Below are positions 7,320 to 54,474 of a stretch of DNA of 64,000 bases, piece after piece. Position numbers and translations under genes: made by a program. The notes under the pieces were generated by a model. The model was not told where the DNA came from. It saw nothing but the letters and a program-made list of their open reading frames with translations, and made no database searches. Origin of the DNA: Planctomycetota bacterium (GTDB lineage Bacteria > Planctomycetota > JAJSAM01 > JAJVHW01); the NCBI GenBank assembly GCA_022072415.1, contig JAJVHW010000006.1:4958-68957 (forward strand). Reading direction: 5' to 3'. Numbering within the stretch: the stretch's first letter is position 1; each line of letters begins with the position of its first letter.

Positions 7320-9161
7320 TCACCGCCCGGAGAGCTTCTCCTCGGTCAGCGTCCCGTCGTCCTGCCGGATGACGTACGCCCGGCGCCCCGCCACGTCGCG
7401 GAACTCGTGCGACGTGCCGCCCGGCCACTGGATCACGACCTTCCGCGCGGCGGGCTCCGCGCCGAGCCCGAAGAAGAAGCGCGGATCGTTGTCGCCGCAG
7501 AACGAGTCGCCGTAGTGGAGCTCGCGGACCTGCACCGAGCCGTCGGCCATGGTGACGAGGACCCGCGCCCCGGCCGGCGTCGTGAGGGGCTTCTTCCCGT
7601 CGAGGCGGAACCGCAGGAACGAGTTCCTGTTCCCCCCGTCGTTCCGGAAGAGCGCCGCCTTCCCGTTGAGCGCGCCGACCCACACGTCCTCGTCGCCGTC
7701 GTCGTCGAAGTCGGCGAAGGTCGCGCCGCGCCAGACGCGCTTCAGGCCGAACGCGGGCCCGGCGTCGTCGGTCACGTCCCGGAGCATCCGCGCGGTCGTG
7801 CCGTCGTTCCGGAGCACCTGGCAGCGCTGCGCGTAGCTCGTCTGCGTCGTCTTCTCGAAGTCGTCCATCTCGCCGTAGACGTGCCCGCACGCGGTGAAGT
7901 AGTCGAGCCATCCGTCGAGGTCGAAGTCCACGAACTTGACGCCCCAGCTCAGGCGGAAGTAGCTCGGCTGCGCGAGCCCCACGGCGTGCGTGCTGTCGGT
8001 GAACGAGATCACGCGGCTCCCGTCGGGGCGGCGGGTGCGTCCGGTCTTGTTCAGGTAGATGGTGTTGTAGTCGTGGGAGAAGTTGGTCACGGTGAGGTCG
8101 AGCCAGCCGTCGCGGTCGTAGTCCGCGGCGTCCACGCCCATGCACGCCTGCTCCAGCATGTCGCGGTTCATGGCGACGCCCGCCTGGAGGGCCAGGTCCT
8201 CGAAGACGCCCTTCCCGTCGTTCACCCAGAGGTGGTTCGACTGCGTGTCGTTCGCCACGAAGATGTCGAGGTCGCCGTCGTTGTCCACGTCGGTCATGAC
8301 GGGGGAGAAGCCGTAGTAGGCCTTCTGGTTCCGGAGGCGCGCCTTCGATTCGTCGGAGAACGTGCCGTCGCCGCGGCCGATCCAGAGACGGTCGAGCTGT
8401 CCCGTGAGTCCCGCGGGGCCCACGTACACCTTGTGACCGCGCCAGGTCGCGTTCCGTCCGCCGATCCCGGCCTTCCGGCACTCGTCGATGTACGCCTTCT
8501 GGTCGGAGTAGTTCGCCGCGTAGATGTCGAGGATCCCGTCGCCGTTCACGTCGCCGAGCGCGCAGGAGGTCGTCATCTCCCAGTCGCCGCCCGCGACGTC
8601 CGCGCGGTCCGTGATGTCCTCGAACGTGCCGTCGCCGCGGTTCCTGTACAGGCGGTTCCGGCCCCAGCAGCAGATGTACAGGTCCGGCCAGCCGTCGCCG
8701 TCCACGTCGCCGGCCGCGCCGCCGAACCCGAACGCCTGGAGGTCGATTCCCGCGGCCTTCGTCACCTCGGTGAACTTCATCCCGCCTTCGTTGCGGAAGA
8801 GGCGCGTGCGGGCCTCGTCGAGGTACTCGAGGACGCCCTGGTCGGTCAGCATCGTGCCGTCCACCACGCAGAGGTCCATGTCGCCGTCGCGGTCGTAGTC
8901 GAACGCGATCGCGGCGGCGCCCATGCCGGAGACGATCCAGTCCTTCTTCGCCGGCTTCCCGGTGTGGTTCATGGTCGCGACGCCCGCCTCCTCGGCGACG
9001 TCCACGAACGTCGGGAACGGGGCGGCCGCGGGCTTCGCGGGCGGGCGCTCCGCCGGGGCCTGAGCGGGGGTCGGCGGCGCATCGGGCGAACTGGGCGCGA
9101 CGGGCGCGGGCGCGGAGTCGCACGCCGCGAGCGCGAGGGCCGCTCCCGCCGCGGCGAACAT
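7320..9161 (-). CDS. FG-GAP/VCBS repeat lipoprotein with C-terminal ASPIC/UnbV domain (CRTAC1-like)
   Basis: Lipoprotein signal MFAAAGAALALAACDS is followed by repeated DxDGDGxxDL motifs and a C-terminal ELHYGDSFCGDNDPRFFFGLG (ASPIC-UnbV). The start was chosen inside ORF 7320..9515. Confidence 0.8.
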   Translation of the reverse strand: MFAAAGAALALAACDSAPAPVAPSSPDAPPTPAQAPAERPPAKPAAAPFPTFVDVAEEAGVATMNHTGKPAKKDWIVSGMGAAAIAFDYDRDGDMDLCVVDGTMLTDQGVLEYLDEARTRLFRNEGGMKFTEVTKAAGIDLQAFGFGGAAGDVDGDGWPDLYICCWGRNRLYRNRGDGTFEDITDRADVAGGDWEMTTSCALGDVNGDGILDIYAANYSDQKAYIDECRKAGIGGRNATWRGHKVYVGPAGLTGQLDRLWIGRGDGTFSDESKARLRNQKAYYGFSPVMTDVDNDGDLDIFVANDTQSNHLWVNDGKGVFEDLALQAGVAMNRDMLEQACMGVDAADYDRDGWLDLTVTNFSHDYNTIYLNKTGRTRRPDGSRVISFTDSTHAVGLAQPSYFRLSWGVKFVDFDLDGWLDYFTACGHVYGEMDDFEKTTQTSYAQRCQVLRNDGTTARMLRDVTDDAGPAFGLKRVWRGATFADFDDDGDEDVWVGALNGKAALFRNDGGNRNSFLRFRLDGKKPLTTPAGARVLVTMADGSVQVRELHYGDSFCGDNDPRFFFGLGAEPAARKVVIQWPGGTSHEFRDVAGRRAYVIRQDDGTLTEEKLSGR

Positions 9162-9187
9162 GCGGCTCGAGCGGTTCCGGGTCAGCT

Positions 9188-9358
9188 TCACGGCTCCTCC
9201 GAATCCGCCCGACGGGCGTCCCACATCTGCTTCACGCGCGCGAGGAAGTAGACGACCGCGGAGAGGACGAGCACGCCCGTCCCCGTCGTCTGCCACCGCT
9301 CGCCCCCGGCGAGCAGGATCGCCGCTCCGGCGACGAGGAGGACGCACGCGGCGACCAT
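9188..9358 (-). CDS. Small two-TM membrane protein (56 aa)
   Basis: The sequence MVAACVLLVAGAAILLAGG...VLVLSAVVYFLARV is hydrophobic. It sits immediately upstream of the FG-GAP lipoprotein gene, and only the 3' part of ORF 9188..9829 is plausible. Confidence 0.35.
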   Translation of the reverse strand: MVAACVLLVAGAAILLAGGERWQTTGTGVLVLSAVVYFLARVKQMWDARRADSEEP

Positions 9359-9547
9359 GCCTGCGTTCAAGCGGAACGTGAAGGGGAGCACGGGCCGGAA
9401 GGTATCCGTCCCGCCCGCGGAATTCGACGTCCGCAGGGCGGGTCCCGGGCGGTGCGCCCGCGCGAACCGCGCGCGAGTCGGGATTTCCGACGGGAACCGG
9501 CGGGCGGCGGAGCATGGTACGGCGTCGTGACCCGGGAGGGCCTGGGG

Positions 9548-9934
9548 TTGCCCGATCTCACCCTGAAGTGCCGAGACTGCGGAGCCGACTTCGTCTTCAG
9601 CGAGGGCGACCAGAGCCGATTCGCGGAGCACGGCTACGCGCCGCCCCGGCGATGCAAGTCCTGCCGCGCGAGGCAGCGCACGCGCGCGGCCAGCACCGGC
9701 ACCGGCGTCGGCACCGGCGATTCGGGGAGGGCTCCCGGCGGCGTTCCCCAGGGGACCCCCGCGCCCGGCGGCGGCGCCGCGGGGGCGGACACGCCTCGCT
9801 CCCGCCCGAAGCCCGCGGGGCCGATGCACGACACCCGGTGCAGCGAGTGCGACGCGCCGACGCAGGTGCCGTTCGTGCCGGACGGACTTCGTCCGGTGTT
9901 CTGCCTCGCCTGCCTGAAGAAGCGCACGCGCTGA
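9548..9934 (+). CDS. Zinc-ribbon protein (two CxxC...CxxC pairs), probable TTG start
   Basis: Two Cys pairs are present: KCRDCGADFVFSEGDQSRFAEHGYAPPRRCKSCR and CSECDAPTQVPFVPDGLRPVFCLACL. GGAGGG at 9535-9540 lies 7 nt before TTG 9548. The ATG at 9452 gives an Arg-rich, implausible N-terminus. Confidence 0.5.
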   Translation: MPDLTLKCRDCGADFVFSEGDQSRFAEHGYAPPRRCKSCRARQRTRAASTGTGVGTGDSGRAPGGVPQGTPAPGGGAAGADTPRSRPKPAGPMHDTRCSECDAPTQVPFVPDGLRPVFCLACLKKRTR

Positions 9935-13699: not shown

Positions 13700-14617
13700 A
13701 CCGCATCTGTGGTGTGCCAAGAAACGATTCCGGTTTGACGAGGGCGTTCACCGGACACCTCGGGTTCGTCTGATGAGTCCGAGTTCCTCCATCGATGCAT
13801 AGATCGCTTCACGCCGCGCCTTGCGCCGCGCTCGCTCCGATTCGACGCCCGGCAGGGCCTCGGCGAGACGACGGCTGAGGGTCGCGAGGAAGCGTTCACG
13901 AGTCCCAGCATCGTACCAACCCGTCAAGTCCGCGTCCGCCGCCGAGGCCGTCCTGTACCCGAGCCCTCTGCGCAGCCGCCGTTCGTCGAGCAGCGTTCTT
14001 GCCTTCTCGATGCGTGCACGGACCGGGGCGGCGTCGTTCACGACGACACCGCGGCCGAGACCCGTCTCCTCCTTCAGCTCGCGGTTCGTCCTCTCGACCC
14101 ACGCGCTGTGCTGCGGCGTGTGCGGCAGCAAGAGCGGATGCACGACGCCCTGCTCCTTCAGCCACTCCTCGACCGTCCCGCACCTGTAGATCGGGCCGTT
14201 GTCCGTCACAAGCACGAGCGGCAGGCGGCCGCGCTCCACGGCGATCCGCGTGAGGAGTCGCACGACCGCGTCGCCGTCCGCCGGAGCGCCGACCTCGGCG
14301 GCGAGGATCCTCGGCGTCGACACCTCGCGCACCACCTGCCCCTCGACCGCCTCCCCGCCTTCGGTGCGCGCGAGGTGCGTTCCGTCCATCGACCACATCA
14401 CGTCGCGGCCCCCGACCTCTACCGATGTGCGGTGTTCGGCCGCGTGCCCGCGCCGCTGCCTGCGGCGGCTCTGCTTGATCTCGGCGAGGCACTGCCGCAC
14501 GAGGCAGATCGTGAACTTCCGCCAGAAGTCCGGGACCGCCGACGTGCTCGACATCCACGCGCGCCTCGCCACGGCTCTTGAGAGGCTCCGCGAGCGCCAG
14601 CGCCGCACCTGACACAC
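13700..14617 (-). mobile_element. IS copy A: one terminus (TGTGGTGTGCCAAGAAACGATTCCGG) plus an N-terminally truncated rve/DDE transposase (13748..14617)
   Basis: The integrase core is recognisable (MWSMDGTHL, LVLVTDNGPIY, HSAWVERTNRELK). The N-terminal HTH is missing. Confidence 0.7.
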
Positions 14618-14671
14618 CGCCGGGTCCGGTGACTACGTGTCCTCTCCCACCGCGGGCGCACCTACCAGAGC

Positions 14672-25159: not shown

Positions 25160-26032
25160 TCACCCCTCGAACGAGTACCCCGCCAGGAACGGCTCGGACG
25201 CGATCAGCGCGTCGATGCGGCGGCGGTGATCGGGGGTGAAGGGGAACGTGTCGCGGCTTCGGCGGGGCGACGGGAAGATCACGGCGGCGCAAGCGTCGAG
25301 GAACGGCGGCGGAGCGTCGAGCCCGACGAAGGAGCAGAGGCGGCGGACCTCGCGGCGCGGGTCGGCGATCACGTCCTCGTGGCGGACGTCGAGGACGGAG
25401 CCGCGGCGGAACGCGTCGTCCCACACTCCGGCCGCGTCGCGGATCCTCGCGACGCCGCGGACGAGGCCGGACGTGACGTCGATCAGCTTCTCCATCGGCG
25501 CGCCGCTCCGCCGGTGGCGCGTCGCGAGGATGTCGTACGGATTCCGCGCCACGTGGACCAGCCTCGGCGGCGCGCCGAAGAGCGCCGCGGCGCGCGCGAG
25601 GAGCGTGGGTTCGGCGGAGAGGCGGCGCACGGAGCGGGCGCCCTTCTTGTCGCCCATCACACGGAGGTCGCCCGTCGCGCCCTGCCCGGCGCCGGGGACG
25701 GCGTACGAGTAGTCCATCCACTTCCGGTCCATCGCCTCGAACTGGCGGCCGTTCTCGAGGACGAGGGAGAGGATCTCCTCGCGCGAGAACCCGCGGTCTA
25801 CGAAGTGGAAGAGGTCGAGTTCGTGCGCGACCGCGGCCTGCGGGTGCGCGTCGAGGAGCGACCCGAACAGGCTGTGGCCCGAGCGCGGGTAGCCGATGAA
25901 GACGACCACCGTCTTCACGCCCGCGAAGAGCGGCGCCTCGCGGCGCGCGGCGTCGGCCGAGAACGTGCGGAGGAGTCCGACGTCGGCCTCCGGGTATCGC
26001 TTGATGCCGACGCACGGCGGGACGGGCGTCAC
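25160..26032 (-). CDS. Sulfotransferase family protein (GTG start overlapping the ABC gene stop)
   Basis: The PAPS 5'-phosphosulfate-binding-like loop VVFIGYPRSGHSLFGSLL is present. It occupies the 3' portion of ORF 25160..28678. Confidence 0.7.
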   Translation of the reverse strand: MTPVPPCVGIKRYPEADVGLLRTFSADAARREAPLFAGVKTVVVFIGYPRSGHSLFGSLLDAHPQAAVAHELDLFHFVDRGFSREEILSLVLENGRQFEAMDRKWMDYSYAVPGAGQGATGDLRVMGDKKGARSVRRLSAEPTLLARAAALFGAPPRLVHVARNPYDILATRHRRSGAPMEKLIDVTSGLVRGVARIRDAAGVWDDAFRRGSVLDVRHEDVIADPRREVRRLCSFVGLDAPPPFLDACAAVIFPSPRRSRDTFPFTPDHRRRIDALIASEPFLAGYSFEG

Positions 26033-28696
26033 GCCGGGAGCTCCTCGTCGTCGTCGGACCCGGCGTCCGCATCCCCGGACGAGTCGCCGCCTTCGGACTC
26101 CGCCTTCTTCCGCTCCCCCATCTGCCGGTCCCACATCTCCTTGAACCGGCCGCCCTCGCGGTCCATCAGGAGCGACGGCGGGCCCTGCTCGACGATGGCG
26201 CCCTGGTCGAGCACGACCACGTGGTCGGCGTCGCGAATCGTGGAGAGTCGGTGCGCGACGACGATGACGGTGCGGCCGTGCATCAGCTTCGCGAGCGCGG
26301 CCTGCACCTGCGACTCGGCGTGGCTGTCGAGGGCGCTCGTCGCCTCGTCGAGGATCAGCACCGGCGCGTCCTTCAGGATCGCGCGGGCGATGGTCACGCG
26401 CTGGCGCTGCCCGCCGGAGAGCGACGTGCCGCGCTCGCCCGCCATCTTCCCGTAGCCGCCCTCCATGCGGGCGATCTCGTCGTGGACGAACGCGTCGCGC
26501 GCGGCCTGCTCGACCTGCTCGCGCGTGGCGCCGGGGCAGCCGTAGCGGATGTTCTCCTCGATCGACGCGTTGAAGAGGAAGGCGTCCTGCGTCACGATCG
26601 CCACGTTTGCAAGGAGGCTCTCCTTCGTGACGCTCCGCGCGTCGCGCCCGTCGAAGAGCACGGCTCCCTCCGTCGGGTCGTAGAACCGCGCGACCAGGTC
26701 GCAGATCGTCGTCTTCCCCGCGCCGGTCGGGCCCACGAGCGCGACGACCTTCCCCGCCGGGACCACGAGGTCGATCCCGCGCAGGATGTCCTTCTTCCGG
26801 TAGGCGAAGCGCACGCCGCGGAGCTCGATGCCGCGCGAGAGCGGGCCGCGGGGCATGCGGTCCGCGCCGTCGGGGAGCGTGTCCGGCTCGTCGAAGATCT
26901 CGAAGACGCGCTCGGTGCCCGGGACCGCCTCGATCAGCTTGTTGATGACGGAGGTGATCTCCTTCGACTGCTGGTAGCAGGTCTGGACGATCAGCGTGAA
27001 CGCGAAGAGGTCGCCCACCGAGACGCGCCCCGCGAGCACGAACTTCCCTCCGTACCAGACGAGCAGCGCGCCGCCGCCCATCTGCATCAGGTCCATCAGC
27101 GCCTTGCTCATCGCGGAGAGCCGCTGGAGCTTCCGCGCCTCGCGCCGGTAGCGGTGGACCACCTCGTCGAGGCGCTCGGTCTCGCGCGTCTCGCCGGAGA
27201 ACGCCTTCACCACCTTGATCCCGATCATCATCTGGAAGATGACGTGGCTGATCTCGGCCAGGATGAGCTGCCGCGTCTCCGCGCGCTTCTTCACCTTGCG
27301 CGCGATCCGGTAGAGCGGGAAGACGAGGAGCGGGAGCCCGAGGAGGATGAGCGCGAGGCCCCAGTTCGTGACGAAGGCGAGCAGCAGCGCGCCGGCCAGC
27401 ACGAAGGGCGCGGTGAACGCCGTCTCGAAGACCTGGTTCAGCACGTTCCGGAGCGACGCGACGTCGCGCTCGAGCCGCGCGACGAGGTCGCCGAGCTTGT
27501 GCTTCCCGTAGAAGGAGAGCGGCAGCCGGACGAGCTTCGCGCCGAGCGAGACGCGCACGTCGGCGATCATCTGCGTCGCGTAGAAGTTCTGGAGGTAGTC
27601 GCGGAGGAACCCCGTCCCCGCCATGAGCACGCCCACGCCGAGGGTCGCCCACGAGAGCCAGCGGAGGCGGTCGAGGGCGTCGGCGCCCGGGTCCACGAGC
27701 ACGTCGTCGAAGAGCTCGCTCCCGAGCTTGATCTTCAGCATCTGCGAGGCGGAGAAGAGGCCGCCCAGCACGATGACGACGAGGATCCCCCACCTGTACG
27801 GCTTCGCGAACGAGTAGACGCGGAGGAGCGACGAGATCCGGCCCTGCCGCCCTCCGACCCAGAGGAACGCCGCCACGACGCCCGTGAGCAGCGCGCCGCC
27901 GAGGAGCACGTGCCACGGCTTCGCGCGGCCGACGTACTGCGCGCCGACGCGCAGGCTGAGCCCGCCGGTGTCGCGGAGCGCCTCGCCCTCGGTCATCTCC
28001 ACGAGGACGCCGAACCGCGGGGCGTTCCGGCCTTCGCCGTACGCGGCGGAGAGCTTCGACCACGTCGCGAGCACGCGCTCCGACTTCCCTCCGCGGAACG
28101 TCGGCGGGTTCCCGTCGTCGTCCGGCTCCGCGAGGCCGCCGCGGCCCTGGAGGTGCTTCGCAAGCGCCTCGACGCCCTTCGACTCGTGGTCCTTGTCGAA
28201 GCGGTGGCGATGGCGCTCCTGCACGGCCTTCGGGTCGCCCTGCATGCGGAAGAGGACGCGGCCCGTGTCGTCGGCGACGGCCAGGTGCTCGTAGTTCCCC
28301 GACGACGCGCGCCCGCCCACCGGCGGACCGACGGCGGCGACCGCCTGCGCGCGCGCCGCGAGCGTCTCGTAGCGGATCTTCGCGGAGCGCCCGTTCTCGG
28401 AGATCGCGAGGTTCCGCGGCAGGAACTCGACGGTCAGCTCCGTCTCCGTGCCGCCGCCCCACCGGTCGATCGGCGGCGGCGGGGCCGCCGACATGTCGCC
28501 CGCGGCGAGCGCGGCGCGGGCCGACGCCACGGTCGAGGCGATCTCCCCGTCGAACGCCTTCCGCGCCGCGTCGATCCGCGCGAACGCCGCGCGGCGCGCG
28601 ACCGCCGACGCCCGGGAGTCGTTCACCGCGGTCGCGACCGCCGCCACGAGCATCGCGAACGCGAGCACGCACAGCCACGCCTGGATGCGCCTCATC
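26029..28696 (-). CDS. ABC exporter (fused permease/ATPase, MsbA-like) with an extra 280 aa N-terminal periplasmic domain
   Basis: Walker A GPTGAGKTT, the ABC signature LSGGQRQR, Walker B ILILDEATSALD and six TM helices are all present. An N-terminal signal-anchor plus a soluble domain precedes the transmembrane domain. Confidence 0.85.
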
Positions 28697-29816
28697 GCGG
28701 CGGCTCCGGCCGGCTTCCGAGGAGTTCGCGGTAGACCGCGAGGTTCCCCCCGACCATCGCGTCGATCGTGAACTTCCGCTCGACGTGCCGCCGCCCCTCG
28801 TCGGCGAGGCGGGCCGCGAGCGCGCGGTCCGCGAGCAGGCGCAGCACCGCCGCGGCGAGCGCGGCTGGGTCGCGCACGGGCACGGTGAGTCCGGTCTGTC
28901 CGTCCACGATCACTTCGGGGATTCCTCCCGCCGCCGAGCCGACACAGGGCCGCCGGAGCGCCAGCGCATCGAGCAGGCTCGTGCAGAGGCCCTCCAGCAC
29001 GCTGCACATCACGAAGACGTCGCAGCCGGCGAGGAGCGAGGGTACGTCGGTGCGGAACCCCGTGAAGACGATTCGGGACGCCACGCCGAGCGCCTCGGCC
29101 TCGGCGCGCACCTTCGGCAGGCACTCGCCCTCGCCCACGAGGACGATCCGCGCCTCGGGGTGGGCGGCCAGGATCGCCGGCGCCGCGCGCACGAGGAACT
29201 CCTGCGCCTTGTGCCAGCCGAACGCCGCCACGTCGAGGATCACGGGCGCGCCGCGCGGCATCCCGAACTCGGCCGCGTAGTCGTGCGGCGCGACGCCGTC
29301 GAAGCGCGCGAGGTCGATCCCCGAGTGGACGACGCGGATCCGCTCCGGCGGGATCCCGTCCTTCACCATCTGCGCGCGGATGCCCTCGCTGATCGCCACG
29401 TAGCGGTCCACGCCGAAGCGGTACTTGAACCACGAGAGCCGGAGCGCGTTCCGGTAGATCGTGAAGTCCACGCGGCGGGAGACGACGGTCTTCCCGATGC
29501 CGGCCGCCTTCGCCGCGAGCACGCCCAGCGTGTGGGCATGGCTCGTGTGCATGTGGATCACGTCGGGGCGGAACGAACGGAAGACGCGGCGGAGGCGGAG
29601 CACGCCGGCCGGGTCGGCCTCGCCCCGCGTCCGGACCTCGGCGACGTCGAGCCCCTTCGCGCGGCAGCGCTCGACGTACGGCATCCCCGGCTGCCCGACG
29701 CAGAGGTTCGTCACGCCGCGGCGTGCGAGTCCCTCGGCCAGGTAGAGCGCCTGCTGCTCGCCCCCGCGCCAGCCCTTCTCCGTGTCGATGTGGAGGACGC
29801 GGAGGGGGGCCGTCAC
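28692..29816 (-). CDS. Glycosyltransferase family 4
   Basis: A GTG start gives VTAPLRVLHID. The EX7E-like region CSVLEGLCTSLLDALALRRPCVGSAAGGIPEVI is present. It forms an ATGA overlap with the ABC exporter gene. Confidence 0.8.
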   Translation of the reverse strand: MTAPLRVLHIDTEKGWRGGEQQALYLAEGLARRGVTNLCVGQPGMPYVERCRAKGLDVAEVRTRGEADPAGVLRLRRVFRSFRPDVIHMHTSHAHTLGVLAAKAAGIGKTVVSRRVDFTIYRNALRLSWFKYRFGVDRYVAISEGIRAQMVKDGIPPERIRVVHSGIDLARFDGVAPHDYAAEFGMPRGAPVILDVAAFGWHKAQEFLVRAAPAILAAHPEARIVLVGEGECLPKVRAEAEALGVASRIVFTGFRTDVPSLLAGCDVFVMCSVLEGLCTSLLDALALRRPCVGSAAGGIPEVIVDGQTGLTVPVRDPAALAAAVLRLLADRALAARLADEGRRHVERKFTIDAMVGGNLAVYRELLGSRPEPPR

Positions 29817-30949
29817 GCCGGCACCCCCGCCCCGGCGCGCGCGGCGTCGCGGTAGGCCTCGACGGTGCGGCGCGCCGTCTCCTTCCAGTCGAACTGCGCG
29901 GCGCGCGCGTGGCCGCGTCCGATCCACGCCTGCCGTTCGCCGCCGTCGACGAGCCGGAGCGCCGCCGCGGCGAGTTCCTCCTCCGAGTCGGGGTGCACGA
30001 GCACCGCGGCGCCGCCGCAGGTCCCCTCCGTGGCGGCCGCGCGGGCCGCGACGACCGGAGTCCCGCACGCCATCGCCTCGAGCACGGGGAGCCCGAAACC
30101 CTCGCCCTTCCCGGTGAAGCAGAACGCGACAGCCCCGGCGTAGAGCGCGGGGAGCTCGTCGTCGCCGACGTATCCCAGACGCTTCACGCGCGACGCCACG
30201 GGGAGCCCCTCCGCCGCGGCGAGCACGTCCTGCCCCCCCGTCTGCACCGGCCCCGCGAGCACCAGGTCGAGGTCGAGCCCGGGGCGCCGCGCGTGGATCG
30301 CGCCGAACGCGCGGACGAGAGGCATCAGGTTCTTCCGGGCGGAGATCTGCCCCACGAAGAGCAGGTACGGCGACCGGAGCCCGTTCGCCTCGCGGACTCT
30401 CGCCACCGCCTCCGGCGTCTGCGGACGGAACGCCGCGCCGAGCCCGAGCGGCACGACGCGCGTGCGCGGCGCGGCCTCCGGGAACCGCCGGAGGAACGCG
30501 TCCCGCGTGTAGTCGGAGATGCAGAGGATCACGGCCGCGCGGCGCGCCACGTCGGCGAGCGCCCGCTCCTTCGTGCGGCGGAACTTCTCGTCGGCGATCC
30601 CCGGGAGCTCGAGGGCGGAGAGGTCGTGGACGGTGGACACGCAGGGGACCCGGCGGAACTTCGGGATGCGGAGGTCGGGCCCGTGGATCACGTCGAGGCC
30701 CCGCGGGCGGATCGGGATCGGACCGTCCTGGAACCAGCGCATGCGGAACCGCGCGTCCTCCGGCACGACCACGTGGGCCCGCCGCCCGAATCGGGAGATC
30801 CGGTAGAGGAGGTCGGCCCGGTCGTCCTCGCCGAGGACGGCCGGGAGCGCGTCCACGAGCGACGCGCAGTAGCGCGCGACCCCCGTGCGCTCGGCCTTCG
30901 CCACGCACGAGCAGTCGATGCCGATCCGCATCGGGCCGATTGTCCGCAA
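29813..30949 (-). CDS. Glycosyltransferase family 4
   Basis: MRIGIDCS at the N-terminus and GEGFGLPVLEAMACGTPVV in the catalytic region. It forms a GTGA overlap with the downstream GT4. Confidence 0.8.
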   Translation of the reverse strand: MRTIGPMRIGIDCSCVAKAERTGVARYCASLVDALPAVLGEDDRADLLYRISRFGRRAHVVVPEDARFRMRWFQDGPIPIRPRGLDVIHGPDLRIPKFRRVPCVSTVHDLSALELPGIADEKFRRTKERALADVARRAAVILCISDYTRDAFLRRFPEAAPRTRVVPLGLGAAFRPQTPEAVARVREANGLRSPYLLFVGQISARKNLMPLVRAFGAIHARRPGLDLDLVLAGPVQTGGQDVLAAAEGLPVASRVKRLGYVGDDELPALYAGAVAFCFTGKGEGFGLPVLEAMACGTPVVAARAAATEGTCGGAAVLVHPDSEEELAAAALRLVDGGERQAWIGRGHARAAQFDWKETARRTVEAYRDAARAGAGVPA

Positions 30950-31629
30950 CGGACCCCGAAACCGCGCCTTTGAACCCGACGCGAGTAGGATCGGCCGCTC
31001 TGGGCGACCCCGTGGTTCCGTCGGCAGAGGACGTCGAGCGCGCCACCGTCGCGACGCTCGGGAAGCAGGGCGCGTTCCGGCCCACGGTGAGGCTCGTCGA
31101 GGCGGGCGGGGAGCGGCTCGTCGCCAAGGACTACCGCGCGTGCACGGCGCTCTACCGCTGGACGGTGGGCGCGTGGAACCTCGCGCGGGAGGAGTCGGCG
31201 CTCCGGCGGCTCGACGGGATCGACGGCATCCCGCGGTTCCGGGGGCGCGCGGGGCGGTGGATCCTCCTCATGGACTGGATCCGCGGCCGCGACCTCGGGA
31301 AGGTGCGCCGGTTCCGCCAGACGCCGGAGTTCTACGACCGTCTGATGGCCGTCGTGGCCGAGATGCACGCCCGCGGAGTCGTCCACCTGGACCTCCGTCA
31401 GCGCCGGAACATCCTCTTCCGCCCCGACGGCGCCCGGCCGGCGGTGCTCGACTTTGGCTCCGCTCTCTGTCTCCGTCCGGGGACACTCATGCATCGCTTC
31501 CTTTCGCGGATCGACCGCTCGGGAGTCCTCAAGTACAAGCGGCGGGCGCAGCCCGACGCGCTGTCCCCCGAGGAGGCACGGGCGTTGCGATCCGTGGAGA
31601 GGCGAAGGAAGTGGTGGCCGTTCAGTTGA
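30940..31629 (+). CDS. Kdo/lipopolysaccharide-kinase family protein (protein-kinase-like fold)
   Basis: VVHLDLRQRRNILF...VLDFGSA is an HxD/DFG-like catalytic core. The start is uncertain because it overlaps the divergent GT4 5' end. Confidence 0.6.
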   Translation: MSATDPETAPLNPTRVGSAALGDPVVPSAEDVERATVATLGKQGAFRPTVRLVEAGGERLVAKDYRACTALYRWTVGAWNLAREESALRRLDGIDGIPRFRGRAGRWILLMDWIRGRDLGKVRRFRQTPEFYDRLMAVVAEMHARGVVHLDLRQRRNILFRPDGARPAVLDFGSALCLRPGTLMHRFLSRIDRSGVLKYKRRAQPDALSPEEARALRSVERRRKWWPFS

Positions 31630-32953: not shown

Positions 32954-33149
32954 ACCCCGCTCCCGTCCGCACCCGGCGGCCCGCGACCCCTCCCGGGGTC
33001 CGGGCCGCCTCGATTCCGAGGGGCAGGACCCGCCCGCGCCGGGGGTTGGCACGAACCGTGCAACCGGAACTTGGGTGGGGACGTCCCACTTCCGATAGAG
33101 TGTCCGTCCTCCGGAACTCGGACAGACCCCTCACAAGGAGGCCTGAGAG

Positions 33150-34100
33150 ATGCGTTCGATGATGGTTGCGGCAGCCACGGCGCTGCTGACGTTCGCCGCC
33201 GGCGCCGCGCTGGCCGGCAAGGGCGACAAGGCGGAACCGAAGATCACGGTCCGCTTCGCCAAGTCCTGGGACACGGCGGTCGCCGAGGCGAAGGAGCTGA
33301 ACCTGCCGCTGATCGTCCACAGCCACGGCTTCTATTGAAACCCCTGCTGGGGGATGCACGGTGCCGTGCTCCAGAACGAAGACTACATCAGCTTCTCCAA
33401 CGAGAACACTGTCGAGGTGCTCGCCCTCGGGCGGCTCGACGAGGGCATCCAGAAGAACGACCCCCGCGCCGCCGAGTACGACGCGAAGGACGCCGACGGG
33501 AAGCCCGTGAAGTACATGGTGAGCTGGCCCGGACTCACGAAGGAGGAGATCTTCGCGCTCAACTCCTCGAAGGCCGGCTCCTACAACAACACCGGCGGCA
33601 TCCCGTTCACGTGCGTGGTCAACCCGCACGACGAGAAGGAGATGCAGCGGTGGCAGGGCGGCCAGTCGGCGAAGACGATCATGGAGGCCGTCGCCACCCA
33701 CAAGAAGACGATCAACGCCCAGTTCGGCCCGAGCCTCTCGCGCGGGACGATCAAGAAGATCGAGGAGGAGGGGAAGAAGATCGCCGCCTCCCTCGAGAAG
33801 GGCAACCTCGCGGCCGCGGCCGCCGACCTGAAGAAGCTCCAGAAGTCGGTGTCCGGGAAGGACGGCAAGGTCCCCGAGGGCCTGAAGCCGCGCCTCGGCA
33901 AGGTCGAGGACGCGCTCGTCGAGGCGATCGGCAAGGTGCTCGACGAGGCCGAGGGCCTCATCGGCACGGGTGACGCCGCGGGGGCGAAGAAGTCCCTCGC
34001 GAAGGTCGCCGCCGCCGCCAAGGGCACGTCCGCGGAAGCCCGCGTGAAGGAGCTCGAGGCGAAGATCAAGGAGATGGCTCCCGCCGAGCCCGCGAAGTAG
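33150..34100 (+). CDS. Candidate selenoprotein: secreted thioredoxin-fold protein with an in-frame TGA (33336-33338) at the first position of a U-N-P-C motif, plus a Lys/Ala/Glu-rich tail
   Basis: ORFs 33150..33338 and 33354..34100 are in the same frame, separated only by the TGA. The context is LPLIVHSHGFY-TGA-NPCWGM, and a cis-Pro-like GGIPFTCVV follows downstream. A SECIS-like hairpin at 33352..33372 has a bulged U and a GUGC apical loop. There is an AGGAGG RBS and a signal peptide. Confidence 0.45.
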
Positions 34101-34123: not shown

Positions 34124-34160
34124 GGGGCCCGTCTGCCGCGCTTCGCGGACGACGGGCCCC
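34124..34160. terminator. GC-rich hairpin between convergent genes (bidirectional terminator candidate)
   Basis: A 10 bp perfect stem (GGGGCCCGTC, 17 nt loop, GACGGGCCCC) lies between the stops at 34100 and 34179. Confidence 0.4.
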
Positions 34161-36668: not shown

Positions 36669-36710
36669 CGGAGACCTCCCGGCTGCGCCGGAGTCTATCC
36701 GACCGGCGCT

Positions 36711-37863
36711 CTACGCAGTCCCGGCGGCCCGCTTTCCGAGGATCACCTCGTAGAACGCCTCGATCCGCCGCGCCTGGAGCGCGAGTCCGTAGCGGCGGTG
36801 CGCGATGTCGTGGGCCGACGCGGAGAGCCGCTCGCGGAAGGAGGCGTCCTCGGCGAGGCGGATCAGCGCGGACGCGAGTTCGTCGGGGGAATCGCCGACG
36901 AGGATCCCGTTCACGCCGTCCTCGATCAGGTCCACGAGGTGCCCGCGGCGCGCGGCGACGACGGGCACGCCCATCGCGAGCGCCTCGCGCGCGGCGCGGC
37001 ACGAGCCGTCGCTCCCGGGGACGAGGTACACCTTCGCGTGCATGCAGCGGAGGGTCGCCACGTACTCCGACCCGCGACGGTAGCCCGTGAAGATCGCCTT
37101 GCCCTGGAGGTCCTTCCGCGCGGCCGGCTTCACCGCGACCTCGTCCATCCACGTCCCGCGTCCGACGAGCAGGATCTTCATGCGCGGCACGCGCCGCGCG
37201 ACCTGCGTCATCGCCTCGAAGAACACCTCGAACCGGCGGTGACGCTGCATGCGCGCGACGATCCCGACGACGAAGTCCTCCGGCTCGATCCCGTAGTCCT
37301 TCCGGAGGTCCGGGAGCCCCTTCGCCCGGGGGTTGAAGCGGCGGAGGTCCACCGCGCCGTCCACCCAGATCGCGCGCTCCTCCTCCAGGCCGAACCGCTG
37401 GACCACGGAGTTCCGCACGCGCTCGCTGATGGCGACGACGCCCGCGCATCCGCCGCGGAGGAGGGTCTTCGTGTCCTTCGTGACCGGCGGCGGATCGCCG
37501 TCGTAGAGCGAACGGACGATCGGGATCCCGAGCCCCTCGGCCGCGCCGAGCGCGATGCGGTGGTCGTTCGGGAGGTGGCAGTGGATGACGTCGGGGCGGT
37601 GCTTCCTCAGCCACGCGCGGAGCGCGCGGCGGTCGAGGGCGTCCCAGATGGGGTTCCGGTGCTTGCCGAGGCGGAGCACGAGCCGCGGCTCGAGCCCGCG
37701 GCGGCGGGCCTCGTCGGCCACGTCGTTCGGGAGCGGCTCCACCTCGCGCCCGCAGAGGAACTCCACCGTGTGCCCGCGCTGGCGGAGCTGCGCCGCGAGG
37801 TTCACGGCCGGCTCCGCCGGACCGGTCCACTTCCAGTTCGCGAAGAGATGCAGGATGCGCAAG
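36711..37863 (-). CDS. Glycosyltransferase family 4 (probable TTG start)
   Basis: RILHLFANWKW at the N-terminus and EALAMGVPVVAARRGHLVDLIEDGVNG in the catalytic region. Confidence 0.75.
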
Positions 37864-37873
37864 ACGTGGATCC

Positions 37874-39607
37874 TCACTCGATCGGGTCCATGCGGACGAC
37901 GATCTTCCGCCGGCACTCCGCCGCGACGCGGCGGAACCACTCCTTCCACCCCGCAGCCACCTCGGGACGCCCCGCGGCGTACGCGCGGAAGAACCGCAGG
38001 CGGTCCGCGAGGGAGATGCACACGGGCACGCTCGCCGAGAGCTGCGCCAGGTTCTTCACCCGCCGGCGGAACGGCACGCGGCGGTCGAACTCCACGCGGT
38101 CGTAGTCGGCCAGCACGAGCCGGGGCCCCGCCGCCGCTCCGCGGCGGAGGAACAGGTTCACCGCCTTCAGGTCGCCGTGGTAGACGCCCGCGTCGTGGAG
38201 CCGGCGGACGAGCGACGCAGCGGCCTCGACGAGCGCGCGCTTCTCGGCCCGGCGCGCGGCGTCGGGGGCCGACGCGTGGCGCGCGAGCACCACGAGATCG
38301 GACCGCGTGCCGTCCCCGAGGTCCTCCATCACGAGGAACGCGTCCCCGAGCGCCGCGCCGCGCCCGCGGACGAGGAGCGCCAGCGGCTCCGCCGCGTCGA
38401 AGCCGCGGACGAGGAGCCCGTTCCCGGCGACCCATGCGGCCACGGCCCGCGGAGTCCGCACGAGGTTCTTCGCCCGGTCCATCGCGCCGCCCCGCCGGTA
38501 CTGCTTCACGATCACGCTGCGCGGCGCGCCGCCCTCCTCCGGCGGCGGGAGGCTCTGGCGCGTGAGCGCGGACCGGCTCCCGTCCTTCAGCACGTTCCTC
38601 GCCTTCGCCGCCACGTCGCGGAGGTGCGGCGCGACGAGCCCCGCGAGCGCGCGGGCGTCGAGGGTCCGGAGGTGATGGACGCGCATCCCCTCCGCGGCCG
38701 TCACGTCGAACTTCGACGACCGGGCGAGGCTCCGGTCGGTGCGGCTCCGCACGCGCCGGAGCTCCATCCTCGCGAGCTCCGGCTCGAGCGCCGCGGAGAG
38801 CGCGCCTTCCGCGAGCAGGCGTTCCACGCGCGTGCCCGACGGTCCGCCCGCGGTCGCGTACGTCTCGCAGATCCTGCGCCGCTCCTCCTCCGTGCTGCAC
38901 GTGAGCATCGAGTGGAGGAGCTTCACGAGGTCGAACCATCGCGCCGACTCCGACGGGCGCGCAGGGCGCGTCACCGAGTGGAGGTCGATCACGTGGAGCG
39001 ACGGCGCGTCCGGCGGCCCGTTCACGAGGAGGTTCCCGCCGTGGAAGTCGTTGTGGACGAACCCCGCGTCGTGCATCCGGCGGACGAGGCGCGCGAGCGC
39101 GTCGTAGAGCGCGCCGCGGAGCGCCGCGCGGCGGTCCGCCTCGGCGCGGTCGCCTTCGGCGGCGGCGCCCCCGAGCATGTGCTTCTCGACGAACGCGTTG
39201 AGATGGAGCGCGTCGGGGATCTCGCGCGTGACCAGCGCCGCGTCGCGGAGCACGCCTCCTGCGCGCCGCTCTCCGAAGGCGAGGGGCACCGACGTCGGAA
39301 TGCCCGCCGCGTCGAGCGCGCGGCCGACGTCCCACTCGGTCTTCGCGCGGGAGTCCTTCACCGCGTACTTCACCACGTCCTGCGCGCCGGACACGCGGTA
39401 GCGCTTCACGATCACGCGGCCGCCGCCGGGCATCGGCACGCGGAACACCGCGCGGACGAGGTTCCGCTTGAGCACCGCGACGCCGGGCGCGCCGTCGATC
39501 TCGCCGAGCCGCCCGGCGATCCCGGCGCGCACCGCCTCCGCGGTCGCCGCCTCCGCGGTCCATCGGAGCCCCGAGGCGTCGAACGTCACCGTCGCCTCAG
39601 CGGGCAT
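37874..39607 (-). CDS. Protein with two tandem Kdo/LPS-kinase-like domains
   Basis: Domain 1 contains VIVKRYR...FVHNDFHGGNLLV. Domain 2 contains VIVKQYRRGG...VYHGDLKAVNLFL. Confidence 0.7.
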   Translation of the reverse strand: MPAEATVTFDASGLRWTAEAATAEAVRAGIAGRLGEIDGAPGVAVLKRNLVRAVFRVPMPGGGRVIVKRYRVSGAQDVVKYAVKDSRAKTEWDVGRALDAAGIPTSVPLAFGERRAGGVLRDAALVTREIPDALHLNAFVEKHMLGGAAAEGDRAEADRRAALRGALYDALARLVRRMHDAGFVHNDFHGGNLLVNGPPDAPSLHVIDLHSVTRPARPSESARWFDLVKLLHSMLTCSTEEERRRICETYATAGGPSGTRVERLLAEGALSAALEPELARMELRRVRSRTDRSLARSSKFDVTAAEGMRVHHLRTLDARALAGLVAPHLRDVAAKARNVLKDGSRSALTRQSLPPPEEGGAPRSVIVKQYRRGGAMDRAKNLVRTPRAVAAWVAGNGLLVRGFDAAEPLALLVRGRGAALGDAFLVMEDLGDGTRSDLVVLARHASAPDAARRAEKRALVEAAASLVRRLHDAGVYHGDLKAVNLFLRRGAAAGPRLVLADYDRVEFDRRVPFRRRVKNLAQLSASVPVCISLADRLRFFRAYAAGRPEVAAGWKEWFRRVAAECRRKIVVRMDPIE

Positions 39608-40379
39608 CCGGCCTCCAGAGGTCGCGTCCGAGCTCCCGGAGCTTCGCGTACTTGAGGAAGACGTAGTAGGCGCCCGACACGGCCGCGCAGAAGCCCGCCG
39701 CGCCGTCGAGGAAGCCCGCGCGGAGCACGTACATCCGCACGAACTTCCCGAACGGGCGGAGCGTCAGGTCGAGGAGCCCCGCGCGCCGTCCGGCCGCATG
39801 CTTCTCGCGCGCCGCGATCGACGTGAACGAGTCGATCGTGCGGAGATGGTCGGAGAGCGAGCGGTAGCTCAGGTGGAGGAGATCCCCGCCGATCCGCCGC
39901 ACCGGGCCGCCCCCGGGGTCCGTCACCACGTGATCGTGCGGGTTCGTCCCGCCCCACCGCGCGCGGCTCCTCCGGAAGAGCCGGAGCTTCCGGTCCGGAT
40001 ACCAGCCGCCGTGCCGGATCCACCGCCCGAGGTAGAACGTGCGCCGCGCGCACTCGAAGCCGGCGGCGTCGCCCGGCGACCCGAGCGCGGCGAGGATCGA
40101 CGCGCGGAGCTCCGGCGAGACGCGCTCGTCGGCGTCGAGGCAGAGCACCCAGTCGTGCGTCGCCTCCGAGAGCGCGAAGTTCTTCTGCTGCACGTGCCCC
40201 GGCCAGTCGCGCTCGATCACACGCGCCCCGGCCGCCGCGGCGAGTTCGCGGGTGCGGTCCGTCGAATGGCTGTCCACCACGACCCACTCGTCCGCGAAGT
40301 CCGCCGAACTGAGGCAGTCGGAGATGTTCGCCTCCTCGTTCATCGCGACGATGCACACGGAGAGTTTCGGACGCGTCAC
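39597..40379 (-). CDS. Glycosyltransferase family 2
   Basis: LSVCIVAMNEE...WVLCLDADE (DxD motif). The GTG start overlaps the upstream kinase stop (GTGA). Confidence 0.75.
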   Translation of the reverse strand: MTRPKLSVCIVAMNEEANISDCLSSADFADEWVVVDSHSTDRTRELAAAAGARVIERDWPGHVQQKNFALSEATHDWVLCLDADERVSPELRASILAALGSPGDAAGFECARRTFYLGRWIRHGGWYPDRKLRLFRRSRARWGGTNPHDHVVTDPGGGPVRRIGGDLLHLSYRSLSDHLRTIDSFTSIAAREKHAAGRRAGLLDLTLRPFGKFVRMYVLRAGFLDGAAGFCAAVSGAYYVFLKYAKLRELGRDLWRPDAR

Positions 40380-41209
40380 AGCGCGGCCCCCCGGACGGGG
40401 CGGACGGCGTCGTGCCGCGCGATGTGCGCCGCGAGCCGCGAGGCGAGGGCGCGGAGGTCGTCGCGCGACGGCCAGTCGGCGCCGGCGTATGCGCGGAGGA
40501 CCCGCATGCGGTCCGCCCGGGTCACCGGGTGCCCCGCCGCGGCGACCTTCGCGGCGTAGCGGTCGAACCGGAACAGTCCGGCGAGCCGCCTCTCGCGCGG
40601 GAGCGGACGCGCGCGCTTCACGCGGTCGAGGTCGAGGACCCGGACCGCGGCACCGTCGGCGAGGAGGTTCTTCAGGTGGAGGTCGGGGTGGTCGAAGCCC
40701 GCGTCGTGAAGGGCGCGGATCGACCGGCCGGAGGCGGCGAGGATCGCGCGGCGCGCGGCCGGCGCGAGGCCCTCGGCGAGCGCCTGCTCGACGTCGCGGG
40801 CACCGGGGACCTCCTCGAGCAGGAGCCATCCCGCGCGGAACAGCGCGTCGGCACGCCGCGACACGACGCCCAGCGCGCGGCAGACGGGGACTCCCGCGGC
40901 CTCCGCGTCCACGTGCGCGCGAAGCTCGCCGAGGAACCGCCCGTCGCCGACGTGGCGCGCCCCGGTCACGCGGCCGAGCACCCCGCCGTGCAGGTACGGG
41001 CGCACGAACACGCGCCCGGCTCCGGGAACCTCCACCGAGAAGGGCCGCCCGCGCCCGCGGAACTCGCGGACCGCCCGCAGGCGGGCCGACGCGGGGTCGG
41101 CGAGCGACGCGGCCAGCGCGTCGGCGACGTCCTCGCGGAGCACCATGTCGGCGCCCCCCGAGGACCGCCGCACGAAACCGCGCGGAAGCTCAGCCGCCGT
41201 CGGGCCCAT
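40376..41209 (-). CDS. Kdo/LPS-kinase family protein (KdkA/WaaP-like)
   Basis: FDHPDLHLKNLLADG...VLDLDRV in the catalytic region. Confidence 0.65.
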   Translation of the reverse strand: MGPTAAELPRGFVRRSSGGADMVLREDVADALAASLADPASARLRAVREFRGRGRPFSVEVPGAGRVFVRPYLHGGVLGRVTGARHVGDGRFLGELRAHVDAEAAGVPVCRALGVVSRRADALFRAGWLLLEEVPGARDVEQALAEGLAPAARRAILAASGRSIRALHDAGFDHPDLHLKNLLADGAAVRVLDLDRVKRARPLPRERRLAGLFRFDRYAAKVAAAGHPVTRADRMRVLRAYAGADWPSRDDLRALASRLAAHIARHDAVRPVRGAAL

Positions 41210-41301
41210 GCGCGGGATTGTCCCCGCCGTCCGCCCCGCCCGGCAGGGTTTCGGGGCCCCGCGGCGCAGGGGAGACTTTGCACGGCAAAGGCCGAGGGGC
41301 G

Positions 41302-41922
41302 ATGCTCGTGCCCGTGACCCGCCGCGAACCCCGCCCGACCGCCTCCGCGAAGCACGCCGCGGACGACCTGCGGTTCATCCGCGAGACCCTCGAGCGCTCC
41401 GGGCGCTTCACGGCGATCCCCGGCGCCGGAGTGGCGGCGCTCGGCGGGATCGCGTTCACGGCCGCGGCGCTCGCGCAGCAGGCGCGCGACGCGCGCACCT
41501 GGCTCTGGATCTGGGCAGCGGCCGCGGGCGCGGGGATCGCCGTCGGCCTCGCCGCGGTGGCCGTGAAGGCCCGCCGCTCGGGGATGCCGGCCTTCTCCGG
41601 CCCGGCGCGCAGGTTCCTCGCGGCACTGCTTCCCGCGGTCGCCGCGGGCGCGCTGGTGACGGTGCCCCTCGTCTCCCGCGGGCAGACGGCGCTCGTCCCC
41701 GCGCTCTGGATGCTGTTCTACGGCGTCGGCCTCTTCGCGGCGGCGCTCGGCGCCACGCGGATCGTCGCGGTGGCGGGCCTCTGGATCGCCTCGTGCGGCG
41801 CGGCGGCGCTGGTCCTTCCCGCGCGGATGGGGAACGAACTCCTCGCCGCCGGGCTCGGCGCGGGGCACGTCGCGGCGGGCGTCGCGGTCCTCCTCCTCGA
41901 CCGGAGGCGCGATGACCGCTGA
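41302..41922 (+). CDS. Hypothetical four-TM membrane protein
   Basis: Hydrophobic helices. It overlaps the downstream regulator gene start. Confidence 0.5.
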   Translation: MLVPVTRREPRPTASAKHAADDLRFIRETLERSGRFTAIPGAGVAALGGIAFTAAALAQQARDARTWLWIWAAAAGAGIAVGLAAVAVKARRSGMPAFSGPARRFLAALLPAVAAGALVTVPLVSRGQTALVPALWMLFYGVGLFAAALGATRIVAVAGLWIASCGAAALVLPARMGNELLAAGLGAGHVAAGVAVLLLDRRRDDR

Positions 41923-53180: not shown

Positions 53181-54413
53181 TCAGGCGCGACCCGCCGCCA
53201 CGGACTGCACGCGGAGCACGGCCGCGGCCCTCCGTCCGTCGGGCGAGATCCGGCAGCGGGACCCCCGCGGCACCAGCACGGCGCCGCCCGAAGGCGCGAT
53301 CCATGCGCGGTCCCCGGCGTGGACGCGGATCGGCCCGGCGAGCACGATCATCACCACGTCTCCCCGCTCGGCGACGACGCGGACTTCGGCACCCGCGGGG
53401 ATCTCGTCGCGAACCGCACGCACGCACGACGACGCGACCGCGAACGACTCCGGATCGCGGCTCGCCGCCTCGGGAGTGACGTGGCGCCACTCGAGCGGCC
53501 GCGGTCCCGCGGGATCCGCCACGGTGAACGCGCGATATGCCCGCACCTCGTCGAGACCGTCCACGCCCAGCGCCTCCGCGAGTCCGCGGTCGTCGTCGGG
53601 GTGCTCCGCGAGGTACCTCACGACGAACGTCCTCCGGAGCGACTCCGCCGTGCAGCGCACGCCCGCCGCGTCGGCGGCCCGGCGCACGGCGTCCTCGACC
53701 GCACGCGCGTCCATCGCCGCCCGCCCGCCCACCCGGAACAGGAATCCTCCCCGCCGGCGCGGGTTCTCGGCGAGGAGCGCGGCCATCCGGGCCGACGCGT
53801 AGGGACCGAGACGGAGGAGCTTCGGGCGGCGCCCCCGGACCCGCACCCACTCCGCGCGTCCGGCGCGGATCTGGACGTCGCCGGACCGGATCCGCGCGGC
53901 GTCCTCCGCGCGAAGCCCCGTGCCGAGCAGCAGCGACACGATCGCCGCGCACTGCGGGCCGAGCACGTCCGCCGCGGCCCGCAGGCGCCGCTCGCCCGCC
54001 GCGTCGAGGGCCGCCGTCGCGTCCCTGCGGGCGACGTCGAGGAACGGAAGCTCCGCGAACCCGCGGGCCGTGCGCTCGAGCCACGGCTCCGCGCGTGCGG
54101 CGAACGCGGCGTAGCGGCGGAGGAAGGAGAGCCGGCGGTTCAGCGTCGCCGGCGCGGTCCCCGAGGCGAGCTGGCGCCGGCGCATCCGGTCGAACCTGGC
54201 CGGTCCGAAGTCCTTCAGGTCGAACTTCCGCCCCCGGGGACCGGCGCACGCCGCGAGCGTGGCCCAGTCCGACGCGTAGCACGCGCGCGTGACCGGCGCC
54301 AGGCCGTCGCGCCGCAGGTGCTCGCGGAACGCCTCGAACCGGCGCGCCTCGCGCGGCGTCGCGCGGTCACCCCCGGATTCGGCGACGTTTCGTGCGGGCG
54401 TGCGCGTACTCAT
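53181..54413 (-). CDS. Fusion of a tyrosine-recombinase-like domain (degenerate catalytic residues) with a C-terminal cupin
   Basis: SAM-like N-domain FREHLRRDGLAPVTRACYASDWATLA and box I LLLGTGLRAEDAARI. Box II is degenerate (LRRTF in place of LRHxF, and the second His is lost). Cupin-like EVRVVAERGDVVMIVLAGPIRVHAGD. Confidence 0.6.
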   Translation of the reverse strand: MSTRTPARNVAESGGDRATPREARRFEAFREHLRRDGLAPVTRACYASDWATLAACAGPRGRKFDLKDFGPARFDRMRRRQLASGTAPATLNRRLSFLRRYAAFAARAEPWLERTARGFAELPFLDVARRDATAALDAAGERRLRAAADVLGPQCAAIVSLLLGTGLRAEDAARIRSGDVQIRAGRAEWVRVRGRRPKLLRLGPYASARMAALLAENPRRRGGFLFRVGGRAAMDARAVEDAVRRAADAAGVRCTAESLRRTFVVRYLAEHPDDDRGLAEALGVDGLDEVRAYRAFTVADPAGPRPLEWRHVTPEAASRDPESFAVASSCVRAVRDEIPAGAEVRVVAERGDVVMIVLAGPIRVHAGDRAWIAPSGGAVLVPRGSRCRISPDGRRAAAVLRVQSVAAGRA

Positions 54414-54474
54414 ATAATACGACTATAACGTCCCCGCTCCCGGAGGCAACCGGAGGCCGGGCGGAGGAGACCGC

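Follow-up and report, generated by a model that had tools for sequence, protein, structure and literature searches.

An open reading frame (ORF) of 62 codons that ends at a TGA and is followed, in the same frame, by a second ORF raises the question of whether that TGA is a stop or a selenocysteine (Sec) codon. This arrangement is found at positions 33150-34100 of a 64-kb stretch of contig JAJVHW010000006.1 from a Planctomycetota bacterium, the whole of which is here called the window. ORF 33150-33338 and ORF 33354-34100 lie in one frame, separated by a single TGA (33336-33338) within Y-U-N-P-C-W; the first terminates ...LPLIVHSHGFY-TGA and the read-through product is ...HGFY-U-NPC-WGMH.... Although the current annotation of this coding sequence (CDS) consists of two ORFs, of 62 and 248 amino acids (aa), we consider that CDS 33150-34100 (plus strand) is very probably one Sec-encoding, mis-annotated selenoprotein gene, with 316 residues, Sec at residue 63 (U63) and a TAG stop at 34098-34100. 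A Shine-Dalgarno-like AGGAGG, read directly from the sequence, is located on the same strand at 33136-33141, 8 nucleotides (nt) upstream of ATG 33150. An earlier reading of this locus made from the sequence only, here the sequence-only reading, had described the AGGAGG, the two same-frame ORFs, the TGA, the peptide FY-U-NPC-WGMH and a GGIPFTCVV segment, all of which we confirmed on the sequence, the last at residues 149-157.

The evidence that carries this reading comes from the homologues. A protein search with the fused sequence, in which U was replaced by C, returned 89 relatives of two length classes. Among the 44 relatives of about 300 aa, 43 carry HG..C..C, and each of these 43 full-length motif-bearing homologues reads HGFYC[GP]PCWGMH, with Cys in the column of the TGA, as expected from the proposal that the TGA stands for the first Cys of a CxxC motif. 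The remaining class, of about 240 aa (45 of 89), starts right after the redox motif, mostly at Met-His of WGMH and in some cases at V/MLQN. At the DNA level, 63 related loci (31 metagenomic and 32 from genomes of GTDB species, 31 of these 32 genome records being titled as Planctomycetota lineages) gave, together with the window, 71 gene copies. The codon at the TGA position is TGA in 55 copies, TGC in 14 and TGT in 2, while TAA and TAG never occur. Conservation around this codon covers about 40 residues upstream (…SWEAAVEEAKLLNVPIVVHSHGFY) and the whole protein downstream, synonymous differences are abundant on both sides, and the frame and spacing across the TGA are kept in all 55 TGA copies. 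That 55 of 71 copies have TGA at this one codon, flanked on either side by conserved protein, is far beyond chance.

The same pattern is visible in protein databases. When 1.84 billion representative proteins were searched with a profile, 295 relatives came up; the 150 best of these include 74 that begin directly behind the motif, 11 short ORFs with ...HSHGFY as their end and 12 strict Cys forms, so that both halves of split genes are present in the databases. Sec forms outnumber Cys forms by about 3:1, gene callers split the gene in two in every assembly, and none of the database members is annotated with U. For about three quarters of the family, what the databases store is a pair of meaningless ORFs, namely a stub of 62 aa plus a truncated "hypothetical protein"; recognition of the Sec codon corrects this annotation.

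A single-base change from TGC or TGT to TGA would be sufficient to produce the window gene from a Cys-type gene, either as a pseudogene or through a sequencing or assembly error. However, the identical TGA-containing gene was assembled from four separate, independent runs, which excludes sequencing error, and the same TGA occurs in the 55 copies from dozens of metagenome-assembled genomes (MAGs) and metagenomes, with the protein conserved on both sides and with no other disruptions, leaving this explanation scarcely credible. Of the 27 confident genes in the window, 20 end with TGA, which excludes genome-wide recoding of TGA, and the five other in-frame TGA candidates of the window all lie in antisense frames or at gene junctions.

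We modelled the structure of a Cys homologue, P0004, which is 55% identical to the window protein, as well as that of the 248-aa ORF. In the P0004 model, strand 53-59 precedes CGPC (residues 62-65), which lies where helix 63-73 begins, and the Pro that is invariant in alignments A1 and A5 stands directly before strand 152-156. P0004 is confidently predicted to adopt a thioredoxin fold of the DsbH/DsbD-gamma type, with CxxC at the canonical site and a TPR-like tail; the C-terminal 130-140 residues are modelled as helical hairpins with generic TPR-like matches only. Transferred to the plus strand of the window, the thioredoxin-fold domain (DsbH, DsbD-gamma or Thioredoxin_7 type) would span approximately 33252-33665, with the redox motif U-N-P-C (UxxC, 33336-33347) where strand beta-1 gives way to the N-terminus of helix alpha-1, and the GGIPFT loop (33594-33611), carrying the invariant P152, at the position expected for a thioredoxin cis-Pro loop. 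The all-helical TPR-like domain would follow from 33666 to 34097, again with approximate limits. The high-confidence model of this homologue supports the thioredoxin fold, the active-site position and the putative cis-Pro-loop position, all proposed in the sequence-only reading. The Pfam family Thioredoxin_7 (PF13899) matches residues 38-79 only, at 16.7 bits (E = 0.0079) and below the gathering threshold of 27 bits, indicating a superfamily-level relative that falls below the cut-off for curated membership. In NCBIfam there is only a marginal match to the DsbD-like part of the selenoprotein TsoB (11-17 bits versus a cut-off of 805).

These data bear on the possibility that the TGA is a genuine stop. 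The locus would then encode, as in the database annotation, a 62-aa secreted peptide and a separate 248-aa cytoplasmic protein starting at 33354, and an ATG is indeed found there, 15 nt after the TGA. In the fused Cys forms, however, this ATG corresponds to a conserved Met inside the protein, that of WGMH, and many TGA forms have Val, Gln or Leu in its place. A stop would also cut the thioredoxin fold between beta-1 and alpha-1 and detach the signal peptide from the domain. When the 248-aa ORF is modelled alone, the strand pairing with beta-1 is lost and thioredoxins are no longer the top matches, suggesting that by itself it is an incomplete domain. Moreover, a stop does not account for the frame and spacing retained in every TGA copy, and the two ORFs, far from being always separate among homologues, are fused in all Cys forms. 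We therefore regard a genuine stop as very unlikely and continue with the single Sec-encoding gene.

In the sequence-only reading, a hairpin resembling a bacterial selenocysteine insertion sequence (SECIS) had been proposed just after the TGA. Such a hairpin, GGA-U-GCACG-GUGC-CGUGC-UCC, here called type A, is the minimum-free-energy structure of 33352-33372 on the plus strand. Its lower stem is formed by 33352-33354 and 33370-33372, followed by a bulged U (33355), an upper stem of GCACG (33356-33360) and CGUGC (33365-33369), and a GUGC loop (33361-33364); it starts 13 nt downstream of the TGA, and the first loop G lies 23 nt after it. The published criteria for bacterial SECIS (bSECIS) elements (PMC13188914 Fig. 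2A) ask for 3-9 nt in the loop, 4-16 base pairs (bp) in the upper stem, a spacing of 16-37 nt, a G in the first two loop positions and an energy of -7.5 kcal/mol or lower. The window hairpin satisfies all of them, having a GUGC loop with G first, a 5-bp upper stem, a spacing of 22 nt and an energy of -11.4 kcal/mol. The structure, bulged U, loop and position that had been proposed are thus exact, and what did not stand is the weight of the hairpin as a signal in this one sequence, to which we return below.

At the level of the family, the SECIS interpretation is supported. The bSECIS criteria are passed by 40 of 47 distinct Sec forms versus 6 of 16 Cys forms (Fisher p = 5e-4), and when a G[G/U] loop is required only 3 of the 16 Cys forms pass (Fisher p = 3e-6); synonymous shuffles pass in about 18% of cases, or 7% with the G[G/U] loop. 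SelB-type features, a small loop starting with G[G/U] at 22-26 nt from the UGA, are present in 40 of the 47 Sec forms. The Val codon at +10 is GTG in 40 of 40 Sec forms, compared to 36% gene-wide. Two hairpin designs were distinguished. Type A (28 distinct sequences, including the window) combines a 3-bp lower stem and a bulged U with an upper stem GCAC-N / N-GUGC and a loop that reads GGUC or GUGC. Three of its pairs change on both sides. The loop-closing pair 25-30 occurs as GC16/CG7/AU3, and pair 18-36, occurring as GC10/CG9/UG3, joins the third positions of codon +5 and of the Leu codon +11. As the latter pair covaries between two synonymous sites, protein selection does not explain it. 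The covariation score of type A is 0.268, compared to 0.093 in shuffles (0 of 500), a control that ignores phylogeny, and to at most 0.066 with the partners slid, while the 16 Cys forms show no covariation on the type A model. Type B (18 sequences) has the form CAUUCUGC-CGUG(A/U/C)U-GCAGAAUG, with a loop that begins 26 nt after the UGA. Hardly any variation is seen in its nt 22-41, which holds for all synonymous sites there, and this segment uses CAU, UCU and AAU, codons that these genes otherwise seldom employ. Support for reading these hairpins as putative SECIS elements comes from the published criteria together with covariation and constraint on synonymous sites. Region-wide entropy of synonymous sites was dropped as a measure: it shows no dip after the UGA (0.81 versus 0.87-0.88), since the two hairpin designs are mixed in it and only site-specific signals are informative.

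Several results weigh against Sec decoding of this gene. Taken alone, the window hairpin has z = -1.57 relative to dinucleotide shuffles, 14 of 200 of which fold as well, and its stability does not exceed that of synonymous recodings of this peptide (z = +0.28), 52% of which also satisfy the bSECIS criteria; this is because the M-H-x-x-V peptide largely dictates the GCAC...GUGC stem in a genome of 73% GC. A single-sequence hairpin in such a GC-rich context is weak evidence, within chance. Hairpin stability was also dropped as a discriminator between forms, the minimum free energy of nt +13 to +48 being -9.7 kcal/mol in Sec and -9.6 kcal/mol in Cys forms (p = 0.18). The energies of seven type B sequences do not reach the -7.5 kcal/mol cut-off, and type B, being invariant, gives no covariation signal. 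The percent-paired figures (88% of cells for type A, 66% for the 16 Cys forms on the type A model and 29% for Cys forms on the type B model) are biased towards the models, as classes A and B were defined after inspection. In addition, the modelled structure is that of the Cys homologue and not of the window protein, and no gene neighbourhood is conserved: none of the window neighbours recurs at the other family loci, which gives no hint of a partner. Finally, selA, selB, selD and tRNA-Sec were found neither in the 64-kb window nor in about 600 kb of homologous loci, the rest of the genome lying outside this search, which combined ARAGORN (window and 33 loci), tblastn of E. coli SelA, SelB and SelD against the 600 kb, and Pfam/NCBIfam scans of the window genes. 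Rfam matched no family in the window at gathering thresholds, and its E-value search around the TGA returned noise only, including a 13.5-bit antisense "tRNA-Sec" match at E = 4.

The missing Sec machinery in the window and related loci and the thermodynamically unexceptional hairpin would fit a UGA that is read through without Sec, by a near-cognate Cys or Trp tRNA or by a suppressor tRNA, with the hairpin merely slowing termination. Against this, the codon coincides with the nucleophilic Cys of CxxC, a position that is the hallmark of known selenoproteins, and the SelB-type hairpin features recur in most Sec forms. A leaky stop at the catalytic residue in about 75% of the family is also hard to rationalise when a one-base change to TGC or TGT is used by 16 copies, and a second family displays the same pattern. 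We consider read-through without Sec improbable, and Sec insertion remains the reading that we develop here. Complete Sec machinery and several split selenoprotein genes have been documented in other Planctomycetes (PMC4807772), and the second Sec/Cys family, found in a related MAG, supports Sec decoding in this lineage.

This second candidate selenoprotein gene is unrelated to the window gene and lies at L037:11044-11997 on the minus strand, with the first base of its TGA at plus-strand coordinate 11790. It encodes a signal peptide, a Thioredoxin_7 domain with …LVLIEYGREA-U-GNC… and a helical tail. A strong hairpin whose loop reads GUG is found 18 nt downstream of the TGA. Of its 56 relatives in the databases, about 50 are cut short directly behind the motif, and Cys stands in the TGA column of five that are full-length. 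The MAG that contains L037 also holds, on L041, two Sec copies of the family of the window gene.

Translation of the window gene would begin at 33150, and UGA 33336 would be decoded as Sec by SelB with Sec-tRNA(Sec), which the hairpin at 33352-33372 would recruit. The predicted signal peptide of the Sec secretion pathway, MRSMMVAAATALLTFAAGAALA (33150-33215, plus strand), has an A-L-A motif before GK and no lipobox Cys, and would direct the 316-residue protein across the cytoplasmic membrane. Consistent with this, the N-terminus is charged and then hydrophobic in the listed full-length homologues, except for two N-terminally incomplete gene calls; residues 1-20 are of low confidence in the model. 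Both export by this pathway and the cleavage site are what we infer from these sequence features. The mature protein would then consist of a DsbH/DsbD-gamma-type thioredoxin domain, with U-N-P-C at the canonical CxxC site, joined to the TPR-like helical tail. Its activity is most likely that of a periplasmic thiol-disulfide (selenylsulfide) oxidoreductase in which Sec may act as the attacking nucleophile. A role as reductase or isomerase appears more probable than one as a DsbA-like oxidant, because the Cys forms carry the thioredoxin-type CGPC/CPPC; this redox direction, as well as any substrate or partner, we infer rather than observe. Such a protein would point to selenium use in the cell envelope of uncultured Planctomycetota.

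The sequence-only reading had called an exported thioredoxin-like selenoprotein unusual, which proved overstated. The catalogue of 119 prokaryotic selenoprotein families (PMC13188914 Table 1) includes exported thioredoxin-type selenoproteins of the thiol:disulfide interchange (PF13098), DsbA-like, DsbG-like, thiol-disulfide isomerase-like/TlpA-type (cd02966) and redoxin families, and selenoproteins with signal peptides have already been described (bioRxiv 10.1101/2022.07.06.499078). The family of the window gene is like the catalogued periplasmic-type UxxC selenoproteins in being bacterial, in having a thioredoxin fold with Sec in place of the N-terminal Cys of CxxC and Cys homologues, and in its SECIS within the CDS just after the UGA and its predicted extracytoplasmic location. 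Unlike them, it has a C-terminal TPR-like tail of about 140 aa and is confined to Planctomycetota, and its Sec forms outnumber the Cys forms, which is atypical since most families have far fewer Sec than Cys forms (PMC1794560). Pfam and NCBIfam scans (E <= 1) against models of the 119 catalogued families gave no match beyond the sub-threshold Thioredoxin_7 and marginal TsoB ones, families defined only by CDD or PTHR identifiers lying outside the scan, and a literature search found no publication linking Planctomycetota to such a protein. The family is small, new and uncatalogued, while its mechanism is the standard bacterial one, namely UxxC in a thioredoxin fold, with Cys homologues and a SECIS inside the CDS. 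It adds one family, apparently together with a sister family, to the prokaryotic selenoproteome and leaves the understanding of the Sec mechanism unchanged.

Among known structures, DsbH (2ju5), DsbD gamma (1uc7, 2fwh) and a Bacteroides exported cytochrome c biogenesis-related domain (3f9u) share the fold type at only 12-18% identity, but they have Cys instead of Sec and no helical tail, and the window gene is neither fused to nor located beside a DsbD-type membrane domain. The order of a thioredoxin domain followed by helical repeats is also that of YbbN/CnoX-type proteins (3qou, 3qdn), with which Foldseek aligns about 270 columns. Membership of CnoX/YbbN-like chaperedoxins was rejected, the global TM being only about 0.27, and the likeness is one of architecture only. 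CnoX is cytoplasmic and, to our knowledge, has no canonical CxxC. As for the hairpin, the SECIS of E. coli fdhF has a bulged U beneath its upper stem, which is capped by a 4-nt GGUC loop 18 nt from the UGA. The type A hairpins resemble it in their GGUC or GUGC loop, 5-bp upper stem, bulged U and 3-bp lower stem, whereas the loop of the putative SECIS in the window starts 22 nt after the UGA and its stem sequence differs.

In a neighbour-joining, unbootstrapped tree of the family, type A Sec forms are basal and widespread, including a clade of tandem HRHGFY-U paralogues, and type B appears as a derived group; the Cys forms fall into one main derived clade and two separate placements, L037 and L042/L043/L045. 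We give roughly even credence to a wider scenario, in which this uncatalogued, Planctomycetota-restricted family would be predominantly and probably ancestrally Sec-encoding, with at least three later Sec/Cys switches, some of them leaving SECIS remnants, with two structurally different SECIS designs for one codon in separate clades and with a sister family of the same kind, and would form part of a lineage-specific periplasmic selenium redox system. A UxxC oxidoreductase family in which Sec is dominant and two SECIS designs occur is a natural case for the study of SECIS evolution within CDS and of the preference for Sec versus Cys.

Several family members deserve mention in their own right. 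The Cys forms L042:343, L043:4697 and L045:10169 keep the type A upper stem (GCAC...GUGC) and have lost the G[G/U] loop start, and their hairpins look like fossil SECIS elements left by Sec-to-Cys conversion; remnant SECIS structures have been described in Sec-to-Cys converts (PMC1794560). At L043 and L045, a TGA copy lies beside a TGC/TGT copy, with Sec and Cys forms thus side by side. Tandem paralogues, with two TGA copies about 0.9-1.1 kb apart, are found at L003, L008, L016, L024, L028 and L041, and the upstream copy in these six loci belongs to the distinct HRHGFY-U clade, with an R-S (CGG UCG) loop-closing pair. The window contains a single copy of the family. Distant full-length relatives have CPPC or no redox motif: P0109, P0116, P0133, P0149 and P0165 have lost CxxC/UxxC entirely (e.g. 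HAHAFASAASWDMH) and are presumably redox-inactive paralogues. A TrxB-like gene near the L070 copy is apparently coincidental.

The neighbours of the gene in the window encode glycosyltransferases, Kdo/heptose-kinase-like proteins, an FG-GAP protein and hypothetical proteins. A cluster of GT4 glycosyltransferase and Kdo/heptose-kinase-like (PF06293) genes surrounds it (28692-31629 and 36700-41400), which suggests a cell-envelope glycan locus. Between the CDS and the convergent downstream gene, a repeat search found a 17-nt inverted repeat (34124-34160, unstranded), possibly a bidirectional terminator, but it has no T-run and is not called by a consensus terminator scan. Scans of the window for sigma-70 promoters and intrinsic terminators gave nothing useful. 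ARAGORN reported an 89-nt "tRNA-His(gtg)" at 25350-25438 (plus strand) whose anticodon is at position 30; this call is probably spurious, Rfam having no tRNA in the window and the sequence being GC3-rich and coding-like. On the minus strand, a gene at 7320-9557 carries FG-GAP_3 repeats and an ASPIC/UnbV domain, and no in-frame TGA candidate was found in it; for Planctomycetes P1 and P2, this combination of domains appears in a list of weak selenoprotein candidates (PMC4807772 Table S9). Also on the minus strand are an integrase-core (rve) ORF at 13751-14632 and a phage-integrase-family ORF at 53184-54422, the latter with radical-SAM, AAA and VWA/CoxE-like genes as neighbours, which hints that the window includes mobile or island DNA.

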